21,116 nt of DNA from Haliangiales bacterium (GTDB lineage Bacteria; Myxococcota_A; Polyangia; Haliangiales; Haliangiaceae): contig JAYRZI010000002.1 in NCBI GenBank assembly GCA_041916575.1, positions 1 to 21,116 of the forward strand, read 5' to 3'. Shown here piece after piece: positions 1 through 17,662 of this stretch. Position numbers and translations under genes: made by a program. Positions within the stretch are counted from its first letter, which is position 1, and the number at the start of each line of letters is the position of its first letter. Below the pieces are notes generated by a model, which did not search any database, was not told where the DNA came from, and saw nothing but the letters and a program-made list of their open reading frames with translations.

Positions 1-2
1 CG

Positions 3-1838
3 GTGACCGACGGCAGCGGCGCGGCCAGCGTGACCGCGACCGCGAGCGCGGTGGCGGGTAGCTACAGCGTGACGGCGACGGTGAGCGGGCTATTGCCGGC
101 GAGCTTCTCTCTGACCAACACGCCGGGATCGCCGGCGACGATCGCGGCGACTGGAGGCGGGGCGCAGAGCGCGGTGGTGACCACGGCGTTCGCGCAGGCG
201 CTGGCGGTGCGGGTGGAGGACGCGCATGGCAACGCGGTGCCGGGGGTGACAGTGACGTTCGCGGCGCCGGGCAGCGGCGCCACGGCGAGCCTGTCTTCGA
301 CGACGGCGGTGACCGACGGCAGCGGCGCGGCCAGCGTGAGCGCGACCGCGAGCGCGGTGGCGGGTAGCTACAGCGTGACGGCGACGGTGAGCGGGCTATT
401 GCCGGCGAGCTTCTCTCTGACCAACACGCCGGGGGCGCCGGCAACGGTCGCCGTCACTGGCGGCGGTACGCAGAGCGCGGTGGTGACCACGGCGTTCGCG
501 CAGGCGCTGGCGGTGCGGGTGGAGGACGCGCATGGCAACGCGGTGCCGGGGGTGACGGTGACGTTCGCGGCGCCGGGCAGCGGCGCCACGGCGAGCCTGT
601 CTTCGACGACGGCGGTGACCGACGGCAGCGGCGCGGCCAGCGTGACCGCGACCGCGAGCGCGGTGGCGGGTAGCTACAGCGTGACGGCGACGGTGAGCGG
701 GCTATTGCCGGCGAGCTTCTCTCTGACCAACACGCCGGGGGCGCCGGCGACGGTCTCCATCACTGGCGGCGGTACGCAGAGCGCGGTGGTGACCACGGCG
801 TTTGCGCAGGCGCTGGCGGTGCGGGTGGAGGACGCGCATGGCAACGCGGTGCCGGGAGTGACGGTGACGTTCGCGGCGCCGGGCAGCGGCGCCACGGCGA
901 GCCTGTCTTTGACGACGGCGGTGACCAGCGGCAGCGGCGCGGCCAGCGTGACCGCGACCGCGAGCGCGGTGGCGGGTAACTACAGCGTGACGGCGACGGT
1001 GAGCGGGCTATTGCCGGCGAGCTTCTCTCTGACCAACACGCCGGGAGCGCCGGCGACGATCGCGGCGACCGGGGGCGGGGCGCAGAGCGCGGTGGTGACC
1101 ACGGCGTTCGCGCAGGCGCTGGCGGTGCGGGTGGAGGACGCGCATGGCAACGCGGTGCCGGGGGCGACGGTGACGTTCGCGGCGCCGGGCAGCGGCGCCA
1201 CGGCGAGCCTGTCTTCGACGACGGCGGTGACCGACGGCAGCGGCGCGGCCAGCGTGACCGCGACCGCGAGCGCGGTGGCGGGTAACTACAGCGTGACGGC
1301 GACGGTGAGTGGAGTGACGCCGGCGAGCTTCTCTCTGACCAACACGCCGGGAGCGCCGGCGACGATCGCGGCGACCGGGGGCGGGGCGCAGAGCGCGGTG
1401 GTGACCACGGCGTTTGCGCAGGCGCTGGCGGTGCGGGTGGAGGACGCGCATGGCAACGTGGTGCCGGGAGTGACGGTGACGTTCGCAGCGCCGGGCAGCG
1501 GCGCCACGGCGAGCCTGTCTTCGACGACGGCGGTGACCAACGGCAGCGGCGCGGCCAGCGTGACCGCGACGGCCAACGCCACCGCGGGCAGCTACAGCGT
1601 GACGGCGACGGTGAGCGGGCTGACGCCTGCGAGCTTCTCTTTGACCAACACACCGGGAGCGCCGGCGACGATCGCTGTGGTCTCTGGCGGCGATCAGCGC
1701 GCCGCGATCGAGACCGCGTTCGCGCAGCCCCTGGTGGTACAGGTGCTCGACGCACACGGCAATCCAGTGCCGGGCGCTGCGGTGAGCTTCACAGCGCCAG
1801 GGACGGGCGCCACCGCCACGGTCAGCGCCAGCGTCACC
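3..1838 (+). repeat. Six head-to-tail copies of a 306-bp (102-codon) unit at ~95-99% nucleotide identity. Copies start at about 3, 309, 615, 921, 1227 and 1533. The following ~8 units (to about 3850) are progressively diverged at both DNA and protein level.
   Basis: Direct comparison of 3..308 with 309..614 shows only about a dozen substitutions. These cluster in the PG(S/A)PAT(I/V)A(A/V)TGGG(A/T)Q segment. The TIAATGGGAQ variant occurs in copies 1, 4 and 5 and the TV(A/S)(V/I)TGGGTQ variant in copies 2 and 3, giving a mosaic pattern. Confidence 0.9.
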
Positions 1839-4800
1839 ACCGATGCGCAGGGCAGGGCCTCGACGGCGGCGACCGCTGGTTCGATCGCGGGCTCGTACTT
1901 GGTGAGCGCCAGCGTCACCGGCGTGCTCACGCCGGCCACGTTCTCGCTCACCAACGATGCAGGCGGGGTGGCCACGCTGTCCATCGTCAGCGGCCACCCG
2001 CAGAGCGCGGTGGTGACCACGGCCTACGCCGCGCCGCTGGTGGTGGTGGTGCGGGATCACGCCAGTAACCCAGTCCCCGGCGCCACGGTGACCTTCGCTG
2101 CGCCGCTCGGCTCGCCCACGGTGACACTGTCGGCGACCAGCGTGGTCACCGACAGCAACGGGCGCGCTCAGGTGGTTGCCACCGCCGACACGCGCAGCGG
2201 CAGCTTCCAGGTGACGGCGCAGGCGAGCGCCGGCGCGCCGGTGGCCTTCGATCTGACCAACCTGGCGGGCGCTCCCGCCACGATCTCTGCGCTGGTCGGC
2301 GGCACTCCGCAGAGCGCTACGGTGCTGACCGGCTTTGAGCAGCCCCTGGCCGTGCTGGTGCAAGACGCCTTCGGCAACCCGGTGCCGGGCGCCACTGTGA
2401 CCTACACGGAGCCGGGCGTCGGTGCCTCGATCGTACTCTCGGAGATCACCGCGCAGACCGATGCCAGCGGCGTGGCCCAGGTGACCGGCACCGCCAACGG
2501 TACCGCCGGGGCCTACCTGGTGAGCGCCCATGTCGCCGGTGTGCTCGATGCAGCGGCGTTCGCGCTCACCAACCTCGCCGGCGCACCAGCGACCGTCGCT
2601 GCGCTAGGCGGCGACGAGCAGGCCACCGAGGTGGATACCGACTTCGCCGAGGCGCTCGAGGTGCAGGTGCTCGATGCGCAGGGCAATCCGGTTCCCGGGG
2701 CGGTGGTCACCTTCTCGGCCGCCACCGGTGCGGTGACCGCGACGCTCTCGGCCAGCACGGTCGCCACCGATAGCGAAGGCCGCGCTCAGGTCGGGGCGCA
2801 CGCCAGCACCACCGCCGGATCGCATCAGGTGACCGCGGTGGTCGTCGGTGCCTCGTCGCCGGCGGTGTTCTCCCTCGAGAACCTGCCGGGGGCGCCGGCG
2901 AGCCTGGTGGTGAGCCCCACCTCGAGCCCGCAGCAGGCGCAGGTCACCACTGCGTATCCGCAGCCGCTGGCGCTCATCGTGCTCGATCGCTTCGGCAACC
3001 CGGTGCCGCAGGTGGCGATCACCTTCACTGCGCCGACCAGCGGCCCCAGCGGCGCGCTCGATGCAGGCACGGCGACCAGCGACGCGCAAGGCCTCGCCGC
3101 GGTGACGATCACCGCCAATCAGCTCGCCGGCGCCTTCGACGTGCTGGCCACCGTCGATGGGGTGACGCTGCCCGCCGTGTTCGCGCTGACCAACCTGCAC
3201 GGCGCCGCTCACACGGTGAGCATCGATGGCGGCAACATGCAGGAGACCATCGTGGACACCGCCTTCGCCGCGCCGCTGGTGGTGCGGGTGACGGACTCCT
3301 TCGGCAACCCGGTGATCGGCGAACCCGTCACCTTCACCGCTCCGATCGCCGGCGCCACCAGCGTGCTGGCCACCGCGAGCGGCACCACCGACTCCAGCGG
3401 GCGCTTCGCCACTACGGCGGTCGCCGGCACCGTGACCGGGGCCTACCAGGTCGAGGCGGTGGCCGCTGGCGGCGGCTCCCCGGTGGAGTTCACGCTCACC
3501 AATCTCGCCGGTGCGCCGGCCTCGATCTCGGTGGTCGGCGGCGGCGGCGCGCAGAGCGCGCAGGTGCTGCATCCCTTTGCCCAGGCGCTCGCGGTGATCG
3601 TGCGCGATGCCTTCGGCAACCCCGTGCCCGGCGCGACGGTGAGGTTCGTGGCCTCGGCGCTGCCCGGCGCTACGCTATCGGCGCCAGACAGCGTCACTGA
3701 CGGCGAAGGTCAGGCCTCAGTGCTGGCGATCGCCGACCGCATGACCGGCAACTATCAGGTGGTGGCCACCGTCGGCGCGCTCGTGGCCACGTTCTCGCTG
3801 ACCAACACCGCCTCCGCGCCTGGTGCGGTGGTGGTCGCGCGCGGCGGCGGTCAGCGCGCGCTGGCCACCGTGGCCTACGCCGAGCCAGTGGTGTTCCAGG
3901 TGCTCGATGCGTACGGCAACCCGGTGTCCGGCGTCGAGCTGCTCATCGAGCTGCCGGTGCATGGCCCCGGCGCCGAGGTGGTGCGAGTGTCCGCGCAGTC
4001 CGATGCTGCGGGCGAGGTCTCGCTCGAGCTGCTGGCCAAGGGCATGGTTGGCACCTTCTCGGTGAGCGCCTCGGCCCCAGGCGCCAGCAGCGCCGCCATG
4101 GCGACCTTGACGGTGGCGCCCATCCCGACCACGGTGACCGCGACCGCGCCCGCGTCGGTGCCGGTGGATCGGCGCGCGCCGCTGGCCATCTCGGTGACCG
4201 GCCAGCTCGGCGTGCCGACCGGCGAGGTCCAGATCTACGACGAGCTCGGCCAGCTCGTGGCCACCGTGGCGTTGACCCGCGGCCTGGCCGAGGTGGAGGT
4301 CGACCTCAGCGCTCGTGGTCAGCGCCGCTTCGTGGTGCGTTACCCGGCGCAGGGCTCCTACGATGGCAGCGACAGCGCCGAGGTGGTGGTGACCGCCTCC
4401 GACGACGCCGGCACGCTGTCGGGTAGCGGCTGCCAGAGCGGCGCTGGCGGCGGCGGCTGGTTGCTCGTGGGCTGGCTCTTGCTGTGGGCGGCGCGGCTGC
4501 GCGATCGGCGCTCGGGCCTGTCGCTGGGGATCGTGCTCGGCGTGCTCGGCGCCGCCGGGGTGGCGCGGGCGCAGTCGGAGACCCGCGCGGTCAATCGCTA
4601 CCACGCGCCAGCAGCCGACAGCGAGTGGCTGGCCGCGGACTCGCTGTCCTACGGCGACACCTTCGGCGTGGCGCTGGCGCAGACCTGGGACTACGCGCGC
4701 CGGCCGCTGGTGGTGTACGAGGACGATGGCACCATCCGCTCGGTCCCCGTCGAGAATTCGCTGGTGGTGCACACCAGCGCTGCGGTGGCGCTCGGCCGCG

Positions 4801-5390
4801 GCCTGCGCGTCGCGGTGGCGGTGCCGATGGCCGTGTACCAAAACGGCGACGACGCCGTGTTCAACGGCGAGATGCTGCCTGGCCCCAAGTACGCCTTTGG
4901 CGATCTCCAGCTCGCCGCCGACCTGCGCCTGCGCGGCCAGCCAGGAGCGCCGCTGCGCGCGGCGGTCGGCCTGCGCCTTGCCACCCCGACCGGCTCGCGC
5001 TCGCACTTCATGAGCGATAGCCGCTGGGGCGTGGAGCCGCGGGCCTTCGTGGCCAGCACGCGCGGGCCGCTCGAGCTCGGGGCCGAGCTGTCGATGCTCT
5101 TGCGTCGGCGCACCGAGCTGGCCGGGCAGAGCCACGGCAGTGAGCTGCGCTTCATCGGCAGCGCTGGCGTGCGCGTGGCCCAGCGTCGAGTGCTGGTGGG
5201 CGCCGAGCTGGTCGGCGCCACCTCGCTGGTCTCGGACACCGCTACCGGCACACCGATCGAGCTCGGGGTGTCGGCGCGCACCACGCTGGCACACCATGTG
5301 GTGCTCGGCCTCGGCGGCACGCTAGGTCTGGTGCAGGCGGTGGGGACGCCGGACTATCGCTGGATCCTGTCCGCCTCTTGGACGCCGTGA
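3..5390 (+). CDS. Giant surface protein, 5'-partial (no start codon in window, ORF opens at the edge). It has at least 14 tandem ~102-aa bacterial Ig-like (Big_1 / invasin-intimin type) domains, then a MYXO-CTERM-like Cys/Gly-rich hydrophobic Arg-rich segment, then, still in frame, a signal-peptide-like stretch and a ~270-aa C-terminal module with beta-barrel-like amphipathic strands. The stop TGA is at 5388..5390.
   Basis: A single 1795-aa ORF with strong GC3 bias. The unit xGGxQSAxVxTAFAQ(A/P)LxVxVxDAxGNPVPGxxVTFxAPxxGATxxL...TDxxGxAxVxxTAxxxAGxYxVxAxV...F(S/A)LTN recurs at least 14 times. The protein ends ...GSGCQSGAGGGGWLLVGWLLLWAARLRDRR (4422..4511), then SGLSLGIVLGVLGAAGVARA|QSE, then alternating hydrophobic/polar strands to the end. 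All overlapping minus-strand ORFs are Arg/Pro/Ala-rich artefacts. Confidence 0.85.
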   Translation: MTDGSGAASVTATASAVAGSYSVTATVSGLLPASFSLTNTPGSPATIAATGGGAQSAVVTTAFAQALAVRVEDAHGNAVPGVTVTFAAPGSGATASLSSTTAVTDGSGAASVSATASAVAGSYSVTATVSGLLPASFSLTNTPGAPATVAVTGGGTQSAVVTTAFAQALAVRVEDAHGNAVPGVTVTFAAPGSGATASLSSTTAVTDGSGAASVTATASAVAGSYSVTATVSGLLPASFSLTNTPGAPATVSITGGGTQSAVVTTAFAQALAVRVEDAHGNAVPGVTVTFAAPGSGATASLSLTTAVTSGSGAASVTATASAVAGNYSVTATVSGLLPASFSLTNTPGAPATIAATGGGAQSAVVTTAFAQALAVRVEDAHGNAVPGATVTFAAPGSGATASLSSTTAVTDGSGAASVTATASAVAGNYSVTATVSGVTPASFSLTNTPGAPATIAATGGGAQSAVVTTAFAQALAVRVEDAHGNVVPGVTVTFAAPGSGATASLSSTTAVTNGSGAASVTATANATAGSYSVTATVSGLTPASFSLTNTPGAPATIAVVSGGDQRAAIETAFAQPLVVQVLDAHGNPVPGAAVSFTAPGTGATATVSASVTTDAQGRASTAATAGSIAGSYLVSASVTGVLTPATFSLTNDAGGVATLSIVSGHPQSAVVTTAYAAPLVVVVRDHASNPVPGATVTFAAPLGSPTVTLSATSVVTDSNGRAQVVATADTRSGSFQVTAQASAGAPVAFDLTNLAGAPATISALVGGTPQSATVLTGFEQPLAVLVQDAFGNPVPGATVTYTEPGVGASIVLSEITAQTDASGVAQVTGTANGTAGAYLVSAHVAGVLDAAAFALTNLAGAPATVAALGGDEQATEVDTDFAEALEVQVLDAQGNPVPGAVVTFSAATGAVTATLSASTVATDSEGRAQVGAHASTTAGSHQVTAVVVGASSPAVFSLENLPGAPASLVVSPTSSPQQAQVTTAYPQPLALIVLDRFGNPVPQVAITFTAPTSGPSGALDAGTATSDAQGLAAVTITANQLAGAFDVLATVDGVTLPAVFALTNLHGAAHTVSIDGGNMQETIVDTAFAAPLVVRVTDSFGNPVIGEPVTFTAPIAGATSVLATASGTTDSSGRFATTAVAGTVTGAYQVEAVAAGGGSPVEFTLTNLAGAPASISVVGGGGAQSAQVLHPFAQALAVIVRDAFGNPVPGATVRFVASALPGATLSAPDSVTDGEGQASVLAIADRMTGNYQVVATVGALVATFSLTNTASAPGAVVVARGGGQRALATVAYAEPVVFQVLDAYGNPVSGVELLIELPVHGPGAEVVRVSAQSDAAGEVSLELLAKGMVGTFSVSASAPGASSAAMATLTVAPIPTTVTATAPASVPVDRRAPLAISVTGQLGVPTGEVQIYDELGQLVATVALTRGLAEVEVDLSARGQRRFVVRYPAQGSYDGSDSAEVVVTASDDAGTLSGSGCQSGAGGGGWLLVGWLLLWAARLRDRRSGLSLGIVLGVLGAAGVARAQSETRAVNRYHAPAADSEWLAADSLSYGDTFGVALAQTWDYARRPLVVYEDDGTIRSVPVENSLVVHTSAAVALGRGLRVAVAVPMAVYQNGDDAVFNGEMLPGPKYAFGDLQLAADLRLRGQPGAPLRAAVGLRLATPTGSRSHFMSDSRWGVEPRAFVASTRGPLELGAELSMLLRRRTELAGQSHGSELRFIGSAGVRVAQRRVLVGAELVGATSLVSDTATGTPIELGVSARTTLAHHVVLGLGGTLGLVQAVGTPDYRWILSASWTP

Positions 5391-5430
5391 ACCGCGCCGC
5401 GCGACAGCAACGTCACGCTCGCGTGCGCGC

Positions 5431-6993
5431 CTAGTTGTGGCGCGCGCCAGCAGTCAGGGCCAGCGCCGCGCACTCGCCGAAGGCCACGCAGCGCAGATCG
5501 AGCACGCGCGCCGGCAAGAACACGTTGTTCATCGCCGCCGAGCGCTGGAACGAGCGCACCGGCTGGCCGAAGGCATCGGGCGCCGCGGTGGCCGCGCCCG
5601 GCGTCTCGTTGACGTGCACGAACCCAGCCGAGGGTGGCCACACCAGGCCGCCGCCGAGGTTGTCGTTGTTCGAGTGCTGGTGGCAGCCGCCGCAAGACAT
5701 CGCGGTGGCGCGGTTCATCACGTTGGCCGGGGTCAGCGTGGAGCCCAGCGTGGTCAGGCGCCCTTGCACCGCGATGTTGAGCGCCGGCGTGGCGAACAGG
5801 TTGTAGTCGTTCGAGAACTGGGTCACGTCGCCGGTCGGGCCCTCGATGGCGCCGGTCTGCGAGTCGCTCTGGCCGGCGCCGAAGGCCGGGTTGTCGTCGA
5901 GCGTGAACTTGTTGAGGTCGTTGATGATGAGCTTGTCGACCTGGCTCACGAACCAGGTGGAGAAGGCGTCGCTGCCGGTGGCCGCCGAGAACGCGCCCGG
6001 CCACGGGTTGGCCTTGACGTATTCGGGGCGCAGGAACAAGCGGCCGGTGCTCGAGAGCTGCGTCTTGAACTCGCGCAAGTTCCAGCGCGCCTCGTTGGGG
6101 CCGTTCATGAAGCCGTTGGTGCGAACCTGGCCGCGCACCGCGCCCAGGTTCTGGAAGTGCATCACCGGCTGGGTGGTCACCACCACGCCGTCGGAGTAGG
6201 TCAGGGACACGCCGGTGTAGTAGAACGCGGCCAGCGTGCTGCGCGCGCTCGCCGCCGTCACCGCCGGATCGCTCAGGCCGGCCCACAGATCGGCGATGGG
6301 CTGGCAGCCGGCGGCGCCCAGCGCGGGCCGCGGGTTGGGCAGCGCGGCCTCGAAGATGACCAGCGCGCGCCCGGTCGGCGCTACAGGCAAGGCATCCTTG
6401 CGGCCGTAGATGATGCGGAACTCGCCGCACGTGGTGCCCGCGGCGTCGCGCAGGTCGAGCCGGTTGACCAGCGCGATCGGGTAGAAGTACGCCGGCGAGA
6501 CCGGGGTCAAAAGATCGGTGCCGACCAGAGCCATCGAGCCCTCGTTGCGCGGGCACTGGATCGGGAAGCCGTTGATGAGGCCGTGGCCCGCTCCGTCGAC
6601 CACGTCGTCGCACTGCGGCAGGCTGGTGCCGAGCCCGGTCCCGGCGTTGGTGTTGTGGGTATCCCAGAGCTGGCGCGCCAACACGTTCATCGGGCTCTCT
6701 CCGGGCGCGGTGGTGGGCATGCCGGCGGTGGAGAGCATGGTGGCGAGCGTGCGCCGCAGCGAGAACGTGGACTCACCCGTCGCCGAGCAATCGGTGAGGC
6801 CGGCGACGCCGGTGAGACACGGCTGGAGCACCGAGCTGGCGGTGATGGCCAGCGAGCGCGCCGCGTTGGTCGGGATCGCCGGCGAAGCCTTGGCGGTCAG
6901 CTCCGAGAGCTCGGGCTCCTCGGGAGCCAGGGTGCAGGCGCCGGCCAAGAGCACGGAGCCGAGAACGGGAACCAGGGAGTGAATGTTGCGCAT
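5431..6993 (-). CDS. Predicted lipoprotein of 520 aa with a single CXXCH motif (SCGGCHQH) near the C-terminus. Function unknown; possibly a mono-heme c-type cytochrome-like or redox lipoprotein.
   Basis: The ATG at 6991..6993 (complement) is preceded by GGAAGAAGAGG (a Shine-Dalgarno-like site). The N-terminus MRNIHSLVPVLGSVLLAGAC is a lipoprotein signal peptide with an L-A-G-C lipobox. Amino-acid composition is diverse (N, F, Y, Q, T-rich), whereas the overlapping plus ORF 5437..7065 is an Arg/Gly/Ala artefact. The track ORF extends upstream to 7281, but those 96 residues are Arg/Trp-rich and unlikely to be real. Confidence 0.7.
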   Translation of the reverse strand: MRNIHSLVPVLGSVLLAGACTLAPEEPELSELTAKASPAIPTNAARSLAITASSVLQPCLTGVAGLTDCSATGESTFSLRRTLATMLSTAGMPTTAPGESPMNVLARQLWDTHNTNAGTGLGTSLPQCDDVVDGAGHGLINGFPIQCPRNEGSMALVGTDLLTPVSPAYFYPIALVNRLDLRDAAGTTCGEFRIIYGRKDALPVAPTGRALVIFEAALPNPRPALGAAGCQPIADLWAGLSDPAVTAASARSTLAAFYYTGVSLTYSDGVVVTTQPVMHFQNLGAVRGQVRTNGFMNGPNEARWNLREFKTQLSSTGRLFLRPEYVKANPWPGAFSAATGSDAFSTWFVSQVDKLIINDLNKFTLDDNPAFGAGQSDSQTGAIEGPTGDVTQFSNDYNLFATPALNIAVQGRLTTLGSTLTPANVMNRATAMSCGGCHQHSNNDNLGGGLVWPPSAGFVHVNETPGAATAAPDAFGQPVRSFQRSAAMNNVFLPARVLDLRCVAFGECAALALTAGARHN

Positions 6994-7225
6994 GTACCTC
7001 TTCTTCCAACCCGCAACTGCTGTCGGGTGAGAGTTGCAAGAGCAAGCCACATGCCTCTTCCCTAACTGCAGGAGCCGCCACGACTCGGCGCTCGAGGCTG
7101 GTACGTCGATCTCCCAAAGCGTCACGAGATGGCGTGTTCGCGTGGACCGCCAGGTACCGCCTGCGTGCGCCAGGCTACGCGAACGGCCTCGCCGGTCATC
7201 CAACAGCCACAGCGTCGGCGATCGG

Positions 7226-8893
7226 TCAGGCGGCCACCACTGCCTTGGGCAGCGCGCCGTCGCGACGGGCGCGTAGCGCATCGATCACCATGACGGCGGC
7301 CAGGGCCAGTAGCACTACCGAGACCAGGCCGTTGGTCCAAGGCGGCGTGCCGAAGCTGGCAGAGACGAGCTGGCGCGCTTGCAGGACCAGCGAGGTCACG
7401 GTCACCGCGAACACGCCGAGCATCGGGTAGAACGTGTACCAGGTGCGGCGGCCCTGGCGCTTCATCCACACGGTCACCGCCAAGAGCGACAGCGCGGCCA
7501 GGAGCTGATTGGACGAGCCGAACAAGGTCCAAAACAGCCGGAACGAGCCGCTCTCGGTGGCCAGCAAGAACAAGAGGGGCACGCCGCAAGTAGCGGCGGT
7601 GGCGAGCGCCGCCGAGGTCATCCCGCGCGTGCCGGTGAGCTCTTGCAAGATGTAGCGACCCAGCCGCGTCGCCGAGTCGAGCGTATCGAAGATGAAGGTA
7701 GAGAGCGCCATCGCGCCGAAGGTGGCGGCGACCAGCGGCGCCATGCCAAAGAGCTGGTTGAGGAACGCGCCGATGCCCAGCGCGTACACCGCGCCCGGCG
7801 CCTTGCCGGCGGTGTCGGCCGGCGCGACGATCATGATCGTCGCCAGCGCGATGAGCGCCACGAAGCCCTCGAGCAGCATGGCGCCGTAGCCGATGGGGTG
7901 GCAGTGGCGCTCGCGATCGATCTGCTTGGAGGTGGTGCCCGAGCACACCAGGCCGTGGAAGCCGGAGCACGCGCCGCACGCGATGGTCACGAACAGAAAC
8001 GGAAACAGCGTGCCGCCGGGCGAGGAGAAGCCCAGAAACGCCGGCTGCTTGATCTCGAAGCCGCCGAGGAAGATGCCGAGCGTGCCCACCGCCAGCGCCG
8101 CGTACAGCACGAAGCCACCGAGGTAGCCGCGCGGCTGCATGAGCAGCCACATCGGCGAGATCGAGGCGACGAAGCAGTAGCCGATGATGAGCACCACCCA
8201 CACCTTCCAGCTCGCCAAGAGCACGGTGGAGAGCTCGGTGCCGAGCCACACTGCGCCGAAGGTGGCCGGCACGAAGATCACCGTGAGGAGCCACAGCGGT
8301 GGGTTCCACAGCCGGGTGACCAGGCCCATCACCACCGCCAGCCCCAGGTAGAGCAGGCTCGCCATTGCCACCGCGCCGCCCTGGTTGAAGCGAAAGGTCA
8401 GGCCCGCGGCCTCGGCGTCGCCCGAGACGAAGGTGCCGGCGGTGATATCGACGAAGGCGACGATCACGTAGACCAGCGCCATCCAGATGAACGCCAGGAT
8501 GGCGAGCCAGGCGCGCCGGCCCAGGTTGGCCTTGACCACCTCGGCCACCGTCATCGCGTCGTGCCGCACCGAGGCCACCAGCGTGGTGAAGTCGTGGACC
8601 GCTCCGATGAACACCACCCCCAGGCCGATCCACAAGATCGCCGGCAGCCAGCCGAACTGCTGGCAGGCCAGGATCGGCCCGACGATGGGGCCGGCCGCGG
8701 CGATGGCGCTGAAGTGCTGGCCGAACAGGTAGAACGGCCGGGTCGGGACGAAGTCGATCCCGTCTTGGCGGCGGTGCGCCGGGGTATCCGGGCTATCTCC
8801 GAGCTGGTACTGGCGTGCGACGAAGCCGCCGTAGTACCGGTAGCCCAGGGCCAAAGTCACCAGCACCGCGATCGCGAGCAGCGGCAGGGTCAT
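7226..8893 (-). CDS. cstA: Carbon starvation protein A (CstA family peptide/pyruvate transporter), 555 aa, polytopic membrane protein.
   Basis: Conserved CstA N-terminal block GQHFSAIAAAGPIVGPILACQQFGWLPAILWIGLGVVFIGAVHDF. The internal motif ACGACSGFHGLVCSGTTSKQ is present. There are many TM segments, and the ATG is at 8891..8893 (complement). Confidence 0.9.
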   Translation of the reverse strand: MTLPLLAIAVLVTLALGYRYYGGFVARQYQLGDSPDTPAHRRQDGIDFVPTRPFYLFGQHFSAIAAAGPIVGPILACQQFGWLPAILWIGLGVVFIGAVHDFTTLVASVRHDAMTVAEVVKANLGRRAWLAILAFIWMALVYVIVAFVDITAGTFVSGDAEAAGLTFRFNQGGAVAMASLLYLGLAVVMGLVTRLWNPPLWLLTVIFVPATFGAVWLGTELSTVLLASWKVWVVLIIGYCFVASISPMWLLMQPRGYLGGFVLYAALAVGTLGIFLGGFEIKQPAFLGFSSPGGTLFPFLFVTIACGACSGFHGLVCSGTTSKQIDRERHCHPIGYGAMLLEGFVALIALATIMIVAPADTAGKAPGAVYALGIGAFLNQLFGMAPLVAATFGAMALSTFIFDTLDSATRLGRYILQELTGTRGMTSAALATAATCGVPLLFLLATESGSFRLFWTLFGSSNQLLAALSLLAVTVWMKRQGRRTWYTFYPMLGVFAVTVTSLVLQARQLVSASFGTPPWTNGLVSVVLLALAAVMVIDALRARRDGALPKAVVAA

Positions 8894-9002
8894 GGCCGCG
8901 AGCCTACCGCAAGGCCCGCTGGCCGGGGCGGTGCCGGGCCGCCGTCATCTCCTGTGAAGCCGCCGACAGCGGGCGCGCCGATCGTGCTAGGGTGCGCGCC
9001 TT

Positions 9003-10187
9003 ATGGCTTCTGACGACGAAGACTTCGCATCGATGTTCGCTGCGTTCGAGAGCACCTCCGGTGCCAAGGAGCGCCGCCGGCCGCGCGTGGGCGACCTGGT
9101 CTCCGGCACGATCATCTCGATCGGCAAGGACGCGGTGTTCGTCGATCTCGGAGGCAAGGCAGAGGGCACCCTGGATCGCGGGCAGGTCGAGGATCGCGAG
9201 GGCAAGCTCACCGTCGCCATCGGTGACAAGATTGAAGCGCGAGTGGGGCAGGATGAAGGCGGCGTCCTGTCGCTGCGCATCAAGGTCACGCGCGGGCCCG
9301 AGGCCAAGGCCGAGCTGGTGAGCGCCCAGGAGATGGGCCTGCCGGTCGAAGGCCTGGTCACCGAGATGGTCAAGGGCGGCCTGTCCGTCGACGTGGCCGG
9401 CGTGCGCGGCTTCTGCCCGGCCTCGCAGATCGACAACCGCTTCGTCGAGGACCTGTCCGGCTTCGTCGGCCAACGCCTGACCTTCCGCATCACCCGCTAC
9501 GAGCCGGGGGGCCGCGGCAACCTGGTGCTGTCGCGCCGCGTGCTGCTGGATGAAGAGAAGGAGAAGCTGGCCGCCAAGACCCGCGAGCACCTCAAGGTGG
9601 GCGCGGTGATGCGCGGCAAGGTCGTGAGCTTCCGTCCGTTCGGCGCCTTCGTCGACCTGGGCGGCATCGAGGGCATGCTGCACGTGTCCGAGCTCGGCTT
9701 CTCCCGCGTCGAGAAGCCCGAGGACGTGCTGGCCCTGGGCCAGGAGGTCACCGTGTCGGTGCTCAAGATCGAGCCCGGCGACAAGGGCCAGCGCATCGCG
9801 CTCTCGCTCAAGGCGTTGGCCACCGATCCGTGGGCGAGCGCCGGTCAGGCCCTGACCGACGGCGCCCGCGTCAAGGGCAAGATCACGCGCATGCAGCAGT
9901 TCGGCGTGTTCGTCGAGGTGGCGCCCGGCATCGAAGGCCTGGTCCACATCAGCGAGCTCGGCGCCGGCCGCCGCATCAACCACCCGCGCGAGGTGGTGAG
10001 CGAGGGCCAGGAGGTCGAGGTCCAGGTCATCGGCCTCGATCCCGAGCGCCGCCGCGTCTCGCTGTCGATCGCGGCGGTCGCTGCCTCTGGCGGCGCCACC
10101 GCCGAAGACGTGGCCGCGGCCACGCAGCGCCCGTCGGGCGGCGCTGGGCTCGGCACCCTCGCCGATCTGCTCAAGCTCAAGAAGTAG
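9003..10187 (+). CDS. RNA-binding protein with four tandem S1 domains (ribosomal protein S1-like paralogue), 394 aa.
   Basis: The S1 OB-fold signature (G.V.G.V..i..fGaFVdl.g.eGllHiSel) occurs four times, around aa 30-95, 110-175, 195-260 and 280-345. The protein has a highly acidic N-terminus. Confidence 0.85.
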   Translation: MASDDEDFASMFAAFESTSGAKERRRPRVGDLVSGTIISIGKDAVFVDLGGKAEGTLDRGQVEDREGKLTVAIGDKIEARVGQDEGGVLSLRIKVTRGPEAKAELVSAQEMGLPVEGLVTEMVKGGLSVDVAGVRGFCPASQIDNRFVEDLSGFVGQRLTFRITRYEPGGRGNLVLSRRVLLDEEKEKLAAKTREHLKVGAVMRGKVVSFRPFGAFVDLGGIEGMLHVSELGFSRVEKPEDVLALGQEVTVSVLKIEPGDKGQRIALSLKALATDPWASAGQALTDGARVKGKITRMQQFGVFVEVAPGIEGLVHISELGAGRRINHPREVVSEGQEVEVQVIGLDPERRRVSLSIAAVAASGGATAEDVAAATQRPSGGAGLGTLADLLKLKK

Positions 10188-10245
10188 CGGCCAAGCGCGC
10201 GCGGCGCGCGGCCACGAGCGCGGTCATCGCCTGCGCCCGCCCCAG

Positions 10246-10602
10246 TCAGGGCTTGGCCACGGTGAAGCCGGTGATGCAGCGAAACGACTTCTGGTTGTAC
10301 TCGCTGGTCACGTACTCGAGCGTGACCTGATCGCCGTTGCGATAGGCCGCATACAGGATCTGGATGCCGGTCTCCGACAGCTCGCGCCCTTTGCACTGCA
10401 AGCCGCCCCAGCGGTAGTTGGTGGTGGCCTTGTCGAGCGCCAGCCAGATCGCGCCGTGGAAGAGGCGATAGCTGGAGTCACCCGGCTCGAGCAACATGAG
10501 CTGCGCCACCGACGAGGTGGGCGTGGTGTCCGCGTGGGCAGGCGCGGCAGCGGCGAGCAGGGCCAGCATCCCCGCGGCGACGGAAGAAGAGCGGAAGGAC
10601 AT
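10246..10602 (-). CDS. Small secreted hypothetical protein of 118 aa, with a cleavable signal peptide and two Cys in the mature ~94-aa part.
   Basis: MSFRSSSVAAGMLALLAAAAPAHA|DTT is a signal peptide with an AxA site. The composition is non-GC-biased (Y, N, K, F, Q-rich), unlike antisense artefacts. The ATG is at 10600..10602 (complement). Confidence 0.55.
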   Translation of the reverse strand: MSFRSSSVAAGMLALLAAAAPAHADTTPTSSVAQLMLLEPGDSSYRLFHGAIWLALDKATTNYRWGGLQCKGRELSETGIQILYAAYRNGDQVTLEYVTSEYNQKSFRCITGFTVAKP

Positions 10603-10737
10603 GGCGAAATGATACCCAAGTGTCCGCGGCGGTAGGCATTTTGCGCCGTCAAAGGTCGCAAGCCTCCGCCGGTTCTTGCCGTTATCTGCCCGGAACTGCT
10701 CACAGATTCACACATCGCGCTGCGAATCGTCCGCGCC

Positions 10738-12252
10738 ATGGCAAGCTCGCTGTCATGTCGCGCCCTCCTGCAGACACATACCAGCAGCATGGAACGAAGT
10801 GATGCAGAGCTGCTAGCGGCCTCGCGCCGCGGCGAGCGGGCCGCCTTCGCCCTGCTGGTCGAGCGCTATCAGGGCGTGGTCTGCGCGGTGTCGTATAGCG
10901 GCACCGGCGACCGCTCGCTGAGCGAAGACGTGGCGCAGGATACTTTCCTCGCCGCGTGGCGCCAGCTCGATCAGCTCCGCGAGGTCGAGCGCTTGCGAGC
11001 GTGGCTGTGCGGGATCGCCAGAAACCTCGCCCACAAGGCGCGGCGCCGGCGCGCTCGCGAGCTGCCAGTGGCCGATGAGCTCGAGGCCGGAGCCGGTGCC
11101 GATCTGTTCGAACAGGTCAGCGACAGGCAAGCCGAGCGCGTGGTGCGTGAAGCGCTCCATCGCGTGCCCGAGACCTACCGGGAGGCGCTGGTGCTCTACT
11201 ACCACGAGCAACGCTCGGCCAAAGAGGTCGCGCAGGCGCTGGGGATCAGTGAAGCGGCGGTGCTGCAGCGCCTCGCTCGCGGTCGCCAATCGCTGGCGCA
11301 AGGCGTGTCCGCGCTCGTCGAGCGCGCGCTCGCCAGCCCGCTGCCACGCCGCAGCTTGGTCGTCGGCGTCCTGGCCGGGCTATCCGCCATCACTGCGTCC
11401 CATGCGTCCGCTGCCACCACCACGAGTCCGCATGGAGGAATGTCGATGTTGAAGCTAGCTCTTGCCGCCGCAGCCCTCACCGCCGCCGGCGCCACCGCCT
11501 ACGTTACTACCAGCCGCGACGGCAGCCCCGCCGCGGCCCCCAGCAACCCCGTCGCTGTGCTGCAACCTGCGGCGAGCCTCGGCGCCAGCACCCCGCCGGC
11601 GCAAAGACTGACCACGACCCCGGTCCGCAGCGCCGCCGCCGGCTCCAGCTCCACCGCCGGCGGAAAAGAGGAGGGCTGCGGCACCTGCGATGGTTCGGCC
11701 GAGCCCGAATCGCAGCCGCCGGTCGATAGCGCCACCGTGGCGCGCCTGGGCCTGCACGAGGGCCCCTCGCGCGGCGCCGCCGATGCGCCGGTGGTCATCA
11801 CCATGTTCACCGACATGCAGTGCAAGTACTGCGGCGAGTCGCTCGGCACCATGGATCAGCTCCTCGAGGAGCTCGATGGCAAGGTGCGCCTGGTGATCAA
11901 GCAGTTCCCGGTGCGCACCGGCTCCGAGCTAGCGGCGCAGGCCGCCTTCGCCGCCGAGGCGCAGGGCAAGTTCTGGGACCTCTACGACCTGATGATGGCC
12001 AACCAAGATCGGCTCTCGCAAGAGGGCTTGATCGAGCTCGCTCGTCGCGCCGAGCTCGATGTCGACGCGTTTGGGGCCGCCCTGGAAAAGGGCACCTACC
12101 GCAGCTCGGTGGAGGAGGTGCGCAAGGTCGCCAAGGCTCTGAAGGTCATGGGCACGCCGGCCTTCTTCATCAACGGCCGCCACATCGCTGGCGCCCGCTC
12201 GGCCGAGGTGTTCCGCGAGCACATCCAGGCCGCGCTCGCCGAGCGCCGCTAG
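10738..12252 (+). CDS. ECF (sigma-70 family group IV) RNA polymerase sigma factor read in one frame with a hydrophobic anchor and a C-terminal DsbA-like thioredoxin-fold domain (CXXC = CKYC). An alternative start is the ATG at 10789 (MERSDAELL). An internal strong SD+ATG at 11434..11448 could also give a stand-alone signal-anchored DsbA-like protein.
   Basis: Sigma region 2 (DVAQDTFLAAWRQLDQL...WLCGIARNLAHKARRRR) and region 4 (ETYREALVLYYHEQRSAKEVAQALGISEAAVLQRLARGRQSL) are recognisable. There is no stop codon through the hydrophobic segments SLVVGVLAGLSAITAS and MLKLALAAAALTAAGATAYV. The C-terminal 160 aa match the DsbA-family pattern (VVITMFTDMQCKYCG...KVRLVIKQFP...AQGKFWDLYDLMMANQ...GTPAFFINGRHIAGA). 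Confidence 0.8.
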   Translation: MASSLSCRALLQTHTSSMERSDAELLAASRRGERAAFALLVERYQGVVCAVSYSGTGDRSLSEDVAQDTFLAAWRQLDQLREVERLRAWLCGIARNLAHKARRRRARELPVADELEAGAGADLFEQVSDRQAERVVREALHRVPETYREALVLYYHEQRSAKEVAQALGISEAAVLQRLARGRQSLAQGVSALVERALASPLPRRSLVVGVLAGLSAITASHASAATTTSPHGGMSMLKLALAAAALTAAGATAYVTTSRDGSPAAAPSNPVAVLQPAASLGASTPPAQRLTTTPVRSAAAGSSSTAGGKEEGCGTCDGSAEPESQPPVDSATVARLGLHEGPSRGAADAPVVITMFTDMQCKYCGESLGTMDQLLEELDGKVRLVIKQFPVRTGSELAAQAAFAAEAQGKFWDLYDLMMANQDRLSQEGLIELARRAELDVDAFGAALEKGTYRSSVEEVRKVAKALKVMGTPAFFINGRHIAGARSAEVFREHIQAALAERR

Positions 12253-14695: not shown

Positions 14696-17662
14696 TCAGT
14701 CGTCGTCGCCGTCCTCGTCGTTGTGGCCAGGATCGTTGTCGTAGAGCTGCTCGGGCGGAACCTCTGGCGGCTCGAAGCCATCTGGCCAGCGCGTGGTCTC
14801 GTCGAAGCGCGCCGCGGGGTGATCTAGGTAGGGCCGGTACTCTTCGGGCGGCGTCATGAGCATGGCTCCTTCGAGCATGGCTCCTCGAAGATCTGCCCCT
14901 ATCAAGTTGGCGTCGCGGAGATCAGCAAGGTGGAGGTTGGCCTCTTGGAGGTTGGTTTCTTGTAAGTTGGCGGCTTGGAGATTGGCGTGTTGGAGATTGG
15001 CGTGTTGGAGATTGGCGTGTTGGAGCTTGGCGTGTTGGAGCTTGGCGGCTTGGAGCTTGGCGGCTTGGAGGTTGGTTTTTCTGAGGTCGGCGCTGTCGAG
15101 GTTCGCGAGTGTAAGGTTGGCGTATTGGAGGTCGGCCTCTTGGAGGTTGGCGTATTGGAGGTCGGCCTCTTGGAGGTTGGTGTATTGGAGGTCGGCTTCT
15201 TGGAGGCTGACCCCTCGGAGGTCGGCTTCTTGGAGGTTAGCCTCTTGCAGGTTGGATCCCGAGAAGTCGGCGCTGACCAAATTGGATCGGGCGAGCTGTG
15301 CCTTGGGGTGCGTGCCACCTGGTGACATGACGGCTGCGGGCAAGCCGTGAAGTAAGAAGCTGCAGAGCATGGACATGAGCCTTTGGGGATCCCTCGCGGT
15401 GACGCCCGAAGATCCTGCGGTATAGCTGCCGATGGCCAGCGCTGCCTCGCGCAGGTACAGCCGTTCATCTTCGCGTAGGGTCGGCGCCGGTACGGCGGAC
15501 GGTCCTCCGAGTTTCTGCAGCGATTCATCATTGAAGGTGTGCTCGGCCCAGCGTGCCAGCTTGCCTCGATCTTCATCGGTCCATACCCCCGTGGCGGTCT
15601 GTGCCGCGCCCTGGTTGACGAGTTGCATCAGAAACTCGAAAGCGCGATCTTCGGTCCCGAGCAGTCGGGCACCTAGCAAGCGCGCCGGCGTCTTGTGCCA
15701 CTCCGCCTCGCTGCCACGCACGATGCGCAACAGCTCTTGCGACCAGTAGCGCGCCACCAGGAACTCGCGAAACGATTGGTGGCCAAATAGAATGGTGTGA
15801 TCGCCCGATTGCAGGTTGGCCTGCAGTGCCAGCACCAGGCCAAGTTGGATGAGCGCCATCATCTTTGGGTCCAACTTCAACTCGTTTTTCAAGAAGTGCG
15901 CGACATCGCTCTCGCTCAGCACCTGCTGGGCCTGCTCTTGCCTCAGCGCCTCCCAAGCCACGCGCCCCATCAGCCACAACATGGCATCCATCGGGGTGGC
16001 GCTTCGCTTGATGGTGGCGCTATGGCGCAGTACCTCAAGTAGGCTCTGCGAGGCCTCACGGATCGGCCGGTGCTGCTCGCTATCTCCGTCGGCCTTGCCG
16101 TTCGCGAGCTGGCGAAAGAACTGCTCGTACAAGAGCGCCTTGGAGGTCGCGCCTTCGTCACCCGAGTGCTTGGCCCAGGTGAAGGCGATCATGAATAGCA
16201 GGATCGGCGTAGTCGCCAGCTCGGCGAGTCCGCGCGGCTCAAGCTGCTCCCTCGTGAGCGAGGCACTCTCAGCCTGCGTCTGGGTGCCATGCCACCACTT
16301 CGCTAGCCACTCATCGATCTGTGGCGCCTGAAAAGGCAGGAGCCGAACCTCCTGCACGTGCTTGCCCAACTCCTGGGGCAGCACGCCCGGCCGGGTGAAC
16401 ACCACGAAGCGGTGCCGCTCGGTGGTCTTGTCGCCGAGCTTCTGAAACAGCGTGCTCAGCTCCGTTTGGCCCAGCACCACCTCATCCAGCCCATCGAGCA
16501 GGCACAGAAAGCGCTGTTCGCGCTCGGGCCAGGCGAAGGCGGCATCGTCTACTCCTGCCGAGTGCCCCGCTTGCTCCGCGGTGCGCTTGAGCGCTCGGCG
16601 CAGCGTCTCGCCCAGGTCCACCCGCTCCGAGGAAAAATCCTCGGCACAGCGAACGTAAGCTGGGCGCCAAAGCTCGGGGGCGCGCTGCGCCGAGCCGAGA
16701 AACTCACGCGCTAGGTCCCATGCCAGCTTGCGTGCGCTCAGGGACTTGCCGCTGCCGAAATCCGCGGTGACCACGATCACCTTGGGCCCGCCCGAAGCCG
16801 CAAGGAGCTCGCGCAGCAGCGCCAGGATGGGCTTGCCGTCCTTGTGCGCTTCTTTCCGCCGCCCTTCTCCACGCTCCGCCACCCACGCCAGCGGCTCTAC
16901 ATACTGGTCGTCCAACGCCAGAAACGGCAGCACCCCATCGCCCTGCTTCTCCCATTCCTCGCGTCGCCCATTGCCAAACACGTGCCGCCCACCCCAGGTA
17001 GCCAGCTCGCGCAGCAGCAGGTCGCGCACCAGCAGCTCGCGGTAGCGCTCCATTCCCTCCAGGTAGTCGGCGATCGCCGGCGCCGCGGCCAGGCCGCGCA
17101 GATACTCCAGCAGGAAGAAGCGCTCGAACTCGCGCGCCGCAGTGGCCGTCACCTCGAACGGCGGCACCTCTCCCTGCTCGGCGATCGCGAGCTTTGCATC
17201 AGTGAACGCCCACCACAGCGCGCGGTAGTAGGGCGAGGACAGCGGAGCTTGCAGCGAGCCTACGAACTCCAGCTCTTTGTCGGAGCCAGCCCCCAGCTCG
17301 ATGAGCTTGGGCGCGGCGAGGTTCATGCGTAGCTCGATCTCTTCTTTGCGCGCCTTCTCCTCCTTGCTGCGCCAGCGCTGCCAGGCCGAGGCCAGCGGTG
17401 CGCTCAACCCGTGCAGCTCCTGGTGCCGCCCCAGCGCTCGCCCGAACGACCGCGTCACCAGCGCCAGATGGAGCGCCGCCGCCTCCGGCGCCTTGGCCTT
17501 GCGCAACCCCAACAGGCCGCTCCCGGTCTCGAGCAGCCCTCGCAGCCCCTCCAGGTCCTTCTTGTCGAACGCGCTATCATTCGCCCCCTCCCAGACCTTC
17601 ATCCCGGCGCCCAGCAGCCTGCTCAATACACTAACTCCCATCGCGATCGCCGCAGGTTCCAC
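14696..17662 (-). CDS. STAND NTPase of the NACHT family (988 aa from a GTG at 17662; an alternative ATG at 17641 gives 981 aa). It has a ~290-aa N-terminal domain of unknown function, a NACHT module, a helical linker, about 29 C-terminal pentapeptide repeats and an acidic tail.
   Basis: Walker A KVIVVTADFGSGKSLSARK. Walker B / NACHT signature QRFLCLLDGLDEVV. The C-terminus is ...SNLQEANLQEADLRGVSLQEADLQYTNLQEADLQYANL...HANLQHANLQ...ADLRGAMLEGAML, which are A(D/N)LxxA(N/D)L pentapeptide repeats, followed by DNDPGHNDEDGDDD. Confidence 0.85.
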   Translation of the reverse strand: MEPAAIAMGVSVLSRLLGAGMKVWEGANDSAFDKKDLEGLRGLLETGSGLLGLRKAKAPEAAALHLALVTRSFGRALGRHQELHGLSAPLASAWQRWRSKEEKARKEEIELRMNLAAPKLIELGAGSDKELEFVGSLQAPLSSPYYRALWWAFTDAKLAIAEQGEVPPFEVTATAAREFERFFLLEYLRGLAAAPAIADYLEGMERYRELLVRDLLLRELATWGGRHVFGNGRREEWEKQGDGVLPFLALDDQYVEPLAWVAERGEGRRKEAHKDGKPILALLRELLAASGGPKVIVVTADFGSGKSLSARKLAWDLAREFLGSAQRAPELWRPAYVRCAEDFSSERVDLGETLRRALKRTAEQAGHSAGVDDAAFAWPEREQRFLCLLDGLDEVVLGQTELSTLFQKLGDKTTERHRFVVFTRPGVLPQELGKHVQEVRLLPFQAPQIDEWLAKWWHGTQTQAESASLTREQLEPRGLAELATTPILLFMIAFTWAKHSGDEGATSKALLYEQFFRQLANGKADGDSEQHRPIREASQSLLEVLRHSATIKRSATPMDAMLWLMGRVAWEALRQEQAQQVLSESDVAHFLKNELKLDPKMMALIQLGLVLALQANLQSGDHTILFGHQSFREFLVARYWSQELLRIVRGSEAEWHKTPARLLGARLLGTEDRAFEFLMQLVNQGAAQTATGVWTDEDRGKLARWAEHTFNDESLQKLGGPSAVPAPTLREDERLYLREAALAIGSYTAGSSGVTARDPQRLMSMLCSFLLHGLPAAVMSPGGTHPKAQLARSNLVSADFSGSNLQEANLQEADLRGVSLQEADLQYTNLQEADLQYANLQEADLQYANLTLANLDSADLRKTNLQAAKLQAAKLQHAKLQHANLQHANLQHANLQAANLQETNLQEANLHLADLRDANLIGADLRGAMLEGAMLMTPPEEYRPYLDHPAARFDETTRWPDGFEPPEVPPEQLYDNDPGHNDEDGDDD
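14900..15260. repeat. Tandem 15-nt (and 30-nt) periodic DNA repeat that encodes the pentapeptide repeats of the NACHT protein. Examples are ttggagattggcgtg x3, ttggagcttggcgtg, ttggagcttggcggc x2, and a 30-nt unit ttggaggtcggcctcttggaggttggcgta x3.
   Basis: Exact or near-exact consecutive 15-mers at 14975..15079 and 30-mers at 15125..15214. The plus-strand ORFs 14856..15350 and 14975..15325 are artefacts of this periodicity. Confidence 0.9.

Follow-up and report, generated by a model that had tools for sequence, protein, structure and literature searches.

The window analysed here is a 21,116-nucleotide stretch of DNA from a Haliangiales bacterium (contig JAYRZI010000002.1, positions 1 to 21,116 of the forward strand). 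The gene at its left end encodes a surface protein in which an array of immunoglobulin (Ig)-like repeats is followed, in one open reading frame (ORF), by a MYXO-CTERM-like sorting tag, a second hydrophobic segment and a predicted outer-membrane beta-barrel. The gene probably encodes a natural polyprotein, composed of an Ig adhesin with a lipid anchor of the MYXO-CTERM type and its cognate TraB-like barrel, and would hold within a single frame a pair similar to TraA and TraB.

A protein of this general build has been published. Guo, Haft and Wall (mBio 2025; PMC11980579) described in silico MXAN_5598 of Myxococcus xanthus, in which an internal MYXO-CTERM motif is followed by a barrel and OmpA, and the sections of that paper on this protein read it as a two-gene fusion resembling TraA plus TraB and propose that its N-terminal part is processed. 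Its product has been detected in outer-membrane vesicles (PMC4158809). Compared by the published description of MXAN_5598, both proteins have a large adhesin region, an internal MYXO-CTERM tag and an outer-membrane barrel in one ORF; MXAN_5598 has OmpA cell-wall-binding domains after the barrel, whereas the window protein and its clade end at the last strand. The window protein is an MXAN_5598-type internal MYXO-CTERM fusion, a kind that is known but little studied, and its clade is distinct in its Big_1 passenger and its lack of TSP3 repeats and an OmpA domain. A preliminary description of the window had called a tag at this position unusual for MYXO-CTERM proteins. The rarity stands, as the same sections refer to internal motifs as 'rare cases' (PMC11980579), and the novelty does not, given the published MXAN_5598 and the recurrence of such fusions in the census below. 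Where they treat MXAN_5598, these sections discuss neither a second cleavage nor the retention of a signal peptide (PMC11980579). The present analysis adds a first census, which shows that the fusion is recurrent across Myxococcota, an alignment that identifies the second segment as the barrel's own signal peptide with a conserved cleavage site, and a confident 12-strand model of the barrel with affinity to FapF and COG4313.

Continuous frame from the Ig repeats to the barrel

Reading frame: Translation of 4302..5450 and of 3..5390 runs from the tag into SGLSLGIVLGVLGAAGVARA, continues with QSETRAVNRYH... and extends over 272 residues to SASWTP before the stop codon at 5388..5390. Neither a stop codon nor a frame change is present between the passenger, the tag, the signal peptide and the barrel module. 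The guanine-cytosine (GC) content at third codon positions is 0.84-0.94 in one phase from base 1 to 5400, including 0.86-0.93 over 4201 to 5400, which spans the junction, and after 5400 the phase changes to that of a convergent gene on the minus strand. Because this phase is continuous, the passenger and barrel halves are coding in the same frame. The translation and the GC phase bear out the preliminary description, which had noted a tripartite tag with the frame open into a signal peptide and a further module. A promoter and terminator scan of 4300..5600 found neither.

Sorting tag: The three parts typical of a MYXO-CTERM signal are present in order as GSGC QSGAGGGG, WLLVGWLLLWAA and RLRDRR, and the usual position at the extreme C-terminus is not, as 292 residues continue in frame after the tag. 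A hydrophobic stretch occupies the position of helix 1 in every homologue, and an RRR-type cluster is found in all fused homologues. One or both of the MYXO-CTERM models (TIGR03901 and TIGR03382) score the equivalent tag above cut-off in L004 and in eight of the nine other junctions scanned (P0001, P0003, L003, L005, L006, P0016, P0047, and P0091). Since these equivalent segments pass the models, the window tag is taken to be a genuine MYXO-CTERM tag that has diverged.

Second hydrophobic segment: Aligned with two stand-alone TraB-like proteins, P0004 and P0005, this segment matches their N-terminal signal peptides column by column; these peptides read MSRFEIALLASIPSVLVVFGVTGVARA followed by A and MRRAPLRAAFALGALALSLAFASSAFA followed by Q. 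In the fused homologue L004, the alignment to the NCBIfam TraB model begins at profile position 3 and thus covers the TraB signal peptide. Junctions read by eye in the fused homologues have an [AVS]-x-A motif immediately 5' of the barrel, and the small-x-small variants ARA, VHA, ASA, AAA, ALA, AGA, and AEA occur, with Q, E or D usually as the next residue. As judged from this alignment, the barrel has kept its own signal peptide in the form of the second segment, for which the Arg cluster appears to double as n-region. A signal peptide with a conserved signal-peptidase site implies two cuts in the polyprotein.

Barrel module: The C-terminal module matches PF13557 (Phenol_MetA_deg) at 24.7-25.6 bits, a slim margin over the gathering cut-off of 22. 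It also matches the NCBIfam TraB model NF033763 at 30-32 bits (profile positions 46-296 or 49-296 of 522, the latter with E 3e-8), below the cut-off of 700, and because 32 bits stand against 700 the module is a distant paralogue of TraB and not TraB itself. AlphaFold2 with a 92-sequence alignment gives twelve long strands with a predicted local distance difference test score (pLDDT) of 96 and a predicted template modelling score (pTM) of 0.91. An earlier run with a 4-sequence alignment had a pLDDT of 52 and modelled both hydrophobic segments of the junction as helical at low confidence, which serves as a hint only. PF13557, NF033763 and the model together confirm the outer-membrane barrel that had been proposed from the sequence alone, and the predicted fold is a 12-stranded barrel of the TraB/Phenol_MetA_deg lineage; the profile search assigned no globular, non-barrel family to the module. 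Alignment and model agree on the layout of TraB, a signal peptide and then an outer-membrane barrel. The protein ends directly after the last strand, and a TSP3/OmpA extension is absent.

Passenger: The final Ig-like domain, at ORF residues 1381-1464, matches PF16640 at 31-32 bits, under the Pfam cut-off of 35.5, and is kept in all close homologues. Further upstream, the tandem array of Ig repeats reaches the window's left edge, and its repeat number is uncertain because such arrays are prone to expansion, contraction, and assembly collapse.

Table 1. Features of the adhesin-barrel gene and of the gene that converges on it; positions are those of the window.
Feature	Position	Strand	Basis or remark
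Single long ORF	3..5390	+	Open at the window's left edge; N-terminus outside the window
Passenger, at least 13 Big_1/invasin-type Ig repeats	3..4142	+	Pfam Big_1 E 1.7e-118, 13 stretches; Invasin_D3 E 7.6e-71
306-bp tandem array in passenger, 5.5 copies, one Ig repeat per unit	1..1675	+	Tandem Repeats Finder: period 306, 95% matches, score 2944
Final Ig-like domain, Big_3_5-like, with conserved RYPAQGS motif, directly 5' of the sorting motif	4143..4394	+	PF16640, sub-threshold
MYXO-CTERM-like tag GSGCQSGAGGGGWLLVGWLLLWAARLRDRR	4422..4511	+	Cys codon 4431..4433; context in translation reads ...DDAGTLSGSGCQSGAGGGGWLLVGWLLLWAARLRDRR
Gly/Cys signature GSGCQSGAGGGG	4422..4457	+	Sequence reading; proposed lipidation and myxosortase cleavage site
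Hydrophobic helix 1 WLLVGWLLLWAA	4458..4493	+	Proposed stop-transfer segment, N-terminus out, C-terminus in
Arg cluster RLRDRR	4494..4511	+	Proposed cytoplasmic loop: positive end of tag and n-region of next signal peptide
Putative retained signal peptide SGLSLGIVLGVLGAAGVARA	4512..4571	+	Predicted signal peptidase I site after ARA and before Q, between 4571 and 4572
Predicted mature TraB-like outer-membrane beta-barrel, 12 strands, 272 aa, ends ...SASWTP	4572..5387	+	Stop 5388..5390
Convergent gene	5431..6993	-	Ends 40 bp past the adhesin stop; lipoprotein-type signal MRNIHSLVPVLGSVLLAGAC

Recurrence of the fusion among relatives

Close homologues: Relatives were collected by a protein search with 4302..5387 as the query, and further loci came from a one-genome-per-species scan and one metagenome scan. 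Two proteins, P0001 (52% identity, 100% coverage) and P0003 (46%, 99%), have the same in-frame junction. The one-genome-per-species scan gave five loci, L003, L004, L005, L006, and L007, of which L003 and L006 read through the junction without a stop, and L007 is a barrel fragment in which the junction is partly covered. The metagenome scan added L008, and a search of cluster representatives added P0147. The four-part junction is therefore present in nine further sequences at 42-64% identity (P0001, P0003, P0147, L003, L004, L005, L006, L008, and partly L007). Its constant features are a Gly-rich G-x-G-C motif, a run of 12-20 hydrophobic residues, a cluster of the RRR type, and another hydrophobic stretch that closes with a small-x-small site. 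Individual residues of the junction vary widely between homologues while these four features persist, and such a shared junction is, by sequence comparison, far above chance. Neither the one genome scan nor the one metagenome scan found a relative with a stop between the modules or a pair of split orthologues, so the comparison of orthologous loci that the preliminary description had proposed favours one gene. The homologues are annotated by NCBI as single 'Ig-like domain-containing' proteins, and the closest of them are from Kofleriaceae and Myxococcales metagenome-assembled genomes (MAGs), with L004 being from a Kofleriaceae MAG. A query covering the last Ig domains and the tag (3900..4511), which sought relatives that end at the tag, had no protein match at E <= 1e-5 and is uninformative. 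An OmpA profile found no match in the six-frame translations of the window, L001, and L003-L008.

Full-length homologues: The ORFs of L004 (2692 aa, 3074..11152) and L005 (2550 aa, 3434..11086) are complete. From the N-terminus, both contain a lipoprotein-type signal peptide (...LAVAAC and ...LIATAC, respectively), a head of ~270 residues that is common to the two and is without family assignment, DUF11 repeats, an InlB-B-repeat-like domain, and the Ig array. Given the lipoprotein-type signal at the N-terminus, the processed adhesin could be lipidated at both ends.

Census: A profile was searched against 1.84 billion cluster representatives, and the best 150 hits are TraB-like. The profile retained OmpA columns (500 positions), and the counts at E-value thresholds (140,308 etc.) are mostly OmpA and do not represent family size; a sequence search of solved structures with the same OmpA-containing profile matched only OmpA domains. 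The best 150 representatives together with earlier hits make a set of 153 TraB-like proteins, which were examined with a relaxed regular expression and by eye, with P0090 added by eye. At least 24 of the 153 are fused, with a GGGC-type Cys motif, a transmembrane segment and an Arg cluster plus a signal peptide before the barrel, and in 128 the protein stands alone and its barrel is N-terminal. The barrels of the fused proteins begin hundreds to thousands of residues into the protein. Their passengers are diverse and include Big_1 arrays, Ca-binding TSP3-like repeats, and Cys-rich repeats, and where a source is named it is Myxococcaceae, Polyangia, or Kofleriaceae. In a neighbour-joining tree of the barrels, the window clade adjoins OmpA-bearing Big_1 fusions, and the other fusions are scattered among stand-alone barrels. 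Such a pattern hints that fusion or fission took place more than once, but the quick distance tree has no support values and is not relied on.

The locus L002 (1405..4801) contains two tandem stand-alone TraB-like genes of 522 and 566 aa, both OmpA-bearing, with no MYXO-CTERM gene directly upstream. Thus, not every TraB-like barrel is encoded beside a tagged partner.

Proposed processing of the polyprotein and competing explanations

Proposed route: MYXO-CTERM tags are cleaved in a Cys-dependent manner by MrtX, an intramembrane protease of the CPBP family, and the sections of PMC11980579 on the tag predict that it is lipidated and that the proteins arrive at the surface via the type II secretion system. 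For the window protein, the passenger would be exported by Sec, helix 1 would halt the transfer, and the Arg cluster would remain cytoplasmic according to the positive-inside rule. The signal peptide would then re-initiate translocation and bring the barrel domain to the periplasm. The myxosortase MrtX would cut at the Gly/Cys motif to give a lipidated adhesin destined for the cell surface, whereas signal peptidase I would cut after ARA and free the barrel for insertion by the beta-barrel assembly machinery (BAM), and the short two-helix remnant would be discarded. In the outer membrane, the end of the adhesin nearest the membrane would probably rest on the barrel as its platform, as TraA does on TraB in the model of that pair. 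Since both are made as one chain, adhesin and barrel would be produced 1:1. That sorting tags are processed when internal is also reported (PMC11980579, its references 45 and 46): LPXTG constructs and a Haloferax volcanii ArtA substrate with a non-terminal PGF-CTERM-like signal, known here through that paper's account, are precedents in which a sortase-type tag is cleaved even though the protein continues. These cases differ in enzymes and organisms, and the part downstream of the tag is not a signal-peptide-bearing outer-membrane barrel.

Relation to TraA and TraB: TraA and TraB form 1:1 complexes, and in an AlphaFold model the membrane-proximal head of TraA rests on the barrel of TraB (PMC12045341, preprint). 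In both systems a MYXO-CTERM surface protein is encoded directly 5' of a barrel with a signal peptide, and the window barrel matches the N-terminal barrel part of the TraB model. In contrast, traA and traB are two ORFs, which overlap by 4 bp (PMC3325183), and the window has one; given this overlap, a small indel uniting the frames would fuse such a pair. TraA has a PA14-like variable domain and Cys-rich repeats, whereas the window protein has Big_1 Ig repeats. Moreover, TraB and most of its relatives contain TSP3 repeats and an OmpA domain, and the window protein lacks both. When TraB lacks OmpA, foci and adhesion persist and exchange is lost (PMC12045341). Without TSP3/OmpA the window complex would be untethered to peptidoglycan and is more likely an adhesin than a fusogen for outer-membrane exchange; by analogy with the truncated TraB, such a complex would be capable of adhesion and probably would not fuse outer membranes.

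Several points weigh against the polyprotein proposal. The window tag falls short of both models, with 13.2 bits for TIGR03901, where the cut-off is 20, and 13.1 bits for TIGR03382, where it is 15.85, so the earlier label MYXO-CTERM-like holds for the build of the segment and not for its profile score. The Arg cluster RLRDRR is broken by an Asp. The second cleavage site was placed by the -3/-1 rule, conservation and the homologue alignment, without a signal-peptide predictor. The N-terminus of the window protein lies beyond the window edge, and neither mrtX nor type II secretion genes are found within the window. The adhesin-barrel interaction is extrapolated from the AlphaFold model of TraA and TraB in a preprint and would hold by analogy. 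Finally, what is said here of membrane topology, of both cleavages and of lipidation, of how the two products interact and of their biological role is deduced for this protein and its clade.

Barrel as an exporter: A rather unlikely alternative is that the barrel exports its own passenger as a dedicated conduit, a cleaved device akin to autotransporters or FapF that would pass the adhesin, or the lipidated end of it, through the outer membrane. It draws on the fold match to FapF. FapF and the COG4313 channels (Phenol_MetA_deg, PF13557) share the 12-stranded fold with the window barrel, but the likeness is generic among 12-stranded barrels; identity to the window barrel is 13-14%, both are stand-alone channels for amyloid subunits or hydrophobic compounds, and none of them stands behind a sorting tag. 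No Pfam match to an autotransporter or inverse-autotransporter family was found in the ORF. Covalent hairpin threading of type V is ruled out by the linker between passenger and barrel, which is made up of a stop-transfer helix, an Arg cluster and a signal peptide, and for this reason the mechanism differs from type V secretion. Moreover, MYXO-CTERM proteins are predicted to use type II secretion in the sections of PMC11980579 already cited, and TraA and TraB are predicted to reach the outer membrane independently (PMC11980579, PMC12045341). The preliminary description had offered a polyprotein or autotransporter-like fusion as one option; the polyprotein with its own barrel gains from the conserved fusion, the barrel and the equivalence of the signal peptides, whereas the autotransporter-like part is set aside by the TraB/Phenol_MetA_deg lineage and the missing family match.

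Two known secretion classes were considered as assignments for the window protein. A classical autotransporter (type Va) was rejected, as there is no match to a beta-domain family and the linker does not run through the lumen. An inverse autotransporter of the intimin/invasin kind (type Ve) was also rejected: Big_1 and Invasin_D3 are present, but the window barrel is C-terminal and belongs to another family. The full-length homologues start with a non-barrel head, unlike inverse autotransporters, which have an N-terminal barrel.

A broader proposal is that TraB-like barrels are general, dedicated outer-membrane partners of a MYXO-CTERM subclass, possibly as docking pores or as conduits in the manner of FapF. 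On this view, the repeated fusions would count as Rosetta-stone evidence for a route of secretion or anchoring, a 'cleave-and-reassemble' autotransporter, in which the polyprotein is cut twice in the inner membrane and the halves rejoin in the outer membrane. This is a speculative extension with a low probability; if true, the OmpA-less window clade would be the minimal two-part machine.

Uncut protein: Two adjoining hydrophobic segments with a short positive loop between them form a textbook helical hairpin, and the protein could stay uncut with the two helices as a permanent hairpin in the inner membrane, so that the passenger and the C-terminal domain would both be tethered in the periplasm. 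The first AlphaFold2 run, in which both segments are helical, and the sub-threshold scores of the window tag are in line with this. However, a high-confidence 12-stranded barrel cannot insert in the outer membrane while an inner-membrane helix tethers its N-terminus, the second segment matches stand-alone signal peptides, and all fused proteins have the small-x-small site. The first segment also passes MYXO-CTERM models in most homologues. The two-helix hairpin, which was among the explanations raised at the outset, is thus quite improbable, as what follows it is an outer-membrane barrel behind a conserved signal-peptidase site.

Internal start: The barrel could also be translated separately from the same mRNA, from a start in or near the tag, which would make the readthrough product minor or irrelevant. 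In-frame TTG and GTG codons are present inside the window tag, and the TTG of LLWAARLRDRRS... would yield a good signal peptide; in L008, an ATG stands directly before the RRRR cluster. On the other hand, no internal start is conserved and no candidate has a Shine-Dalgarno-like sequence. In L004 and L005, the stretch from the Arg cluster to the AxA site is free of in-frame start codons. With no conserved internal start or Shine-Dalgarno sequence, the barrel must be made within the long protein, and ten sequences lack a stop, hence the long product is made regardless; separate translation is accordingly very doubtful.

At L008 (2381..3640), the junction reads ALA-M-RRRR-AAVAV...AEA followed by Q, with the ATG immediately 5' of the Arg cluster. 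This codon may be left over from a time when the TraB-like barrel was a gene of its own and the ATG was its start.

Artefact: A sequencing or assembly error that erased a stop or shifted the frame between two genes, also suggested earlier, could draw on the separate M. xanthus traA and traB genes with their 4-bp overlap, where a single-base error could fuse such a pair, and on the frames broken upstream in the repeats of the long-read assembly L003, but it is refuted by the same in-frame junction in nine sequences from different samples and assemblers, by the continuous codon-position GC signal and by the NCBI annotation of the homologues as single proteins, and its probability is close to nil. 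In L003, a long-read MAG, the adhesin at 1781..10828 is split into three overlapping ORFs (1781..5920, 5917..6825, and 6740..10828) with the junction intact, and these breaks upstream of the junction are probably frameshift errors in the repeat region.

Neighbouring genes and significance of the fusion

Neighbouring genes: The gene next to the adhesin is convergent, and hence the adhesin has no downstream operon partner. This gene contains a CGGCH haem-c-type motif near its C-terminus and has no Pfam or NCBIfam match. Codon-position GC and the signal peptide suggest that it starts at 6993, even though the listed ORF reaches 7281. On the plus strand, 10738..12252 is an ORF of 504 aa with regions 2 and 4 of an extracytoplasmic function (ECF)-type sigma factor (residues 40-186) and a C-terminal DsbA/thioredoxin-like domain (259-498), which resembles the Rcas_1661 thioredoxin-like lipoprotein family. 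The ORF may join a sigma factor with an extension that is redox-sensing or anti-sigma-like, or it may merge two separate genes. On the minus strand, 14696..17662 encodes a NACHT (STAND NTPase) protein of 988 aa with C-terminal pentapeptide repeats, in a region with a GC content of 0.61-0.66 compared with 0.70-0.75 elsewhere. Adjoining it is a plus-strand ORF (18124..18873) that resembles a transposase of the repetitive extragenic palindromic (REP)-associated tyrosine type at 51 bits, under the cut-off of 80. The region of these two genes may be a horizontally acquired island.

Significance: The finding can inform annotation as well as work on the cell biology of the myxobacterial surface, and it will be no surprise to specialists. 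ORFs of this kind should not be split or flagged as frameshifted, and tag finders that consider only the C-terminus miss them. The junction is compact and can be tested as a substrate of both myxosortase and signal peptidase I, two proteases that would act on a single hairpin. It resembles the internal signal sequences of viral polyproteins, and to our knowledge such two-protease polyprotein junctions are rarely documented in bacteria. The OmpA-less clade is the natural counterpart of the engineered TraB without OmpA and could help to separate adhesion from exchange. The number of fused barrels in the sample, 24 next to 128 stand-alone ones, suggests that adhesin-plus-barrel modules are common in myxobacterial surface structures. 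That one gene holds both a tag protein and a TraB-like barrel is strong comparative evidence that such proteins act jointly beyond TraA and TraB, the single studied case.

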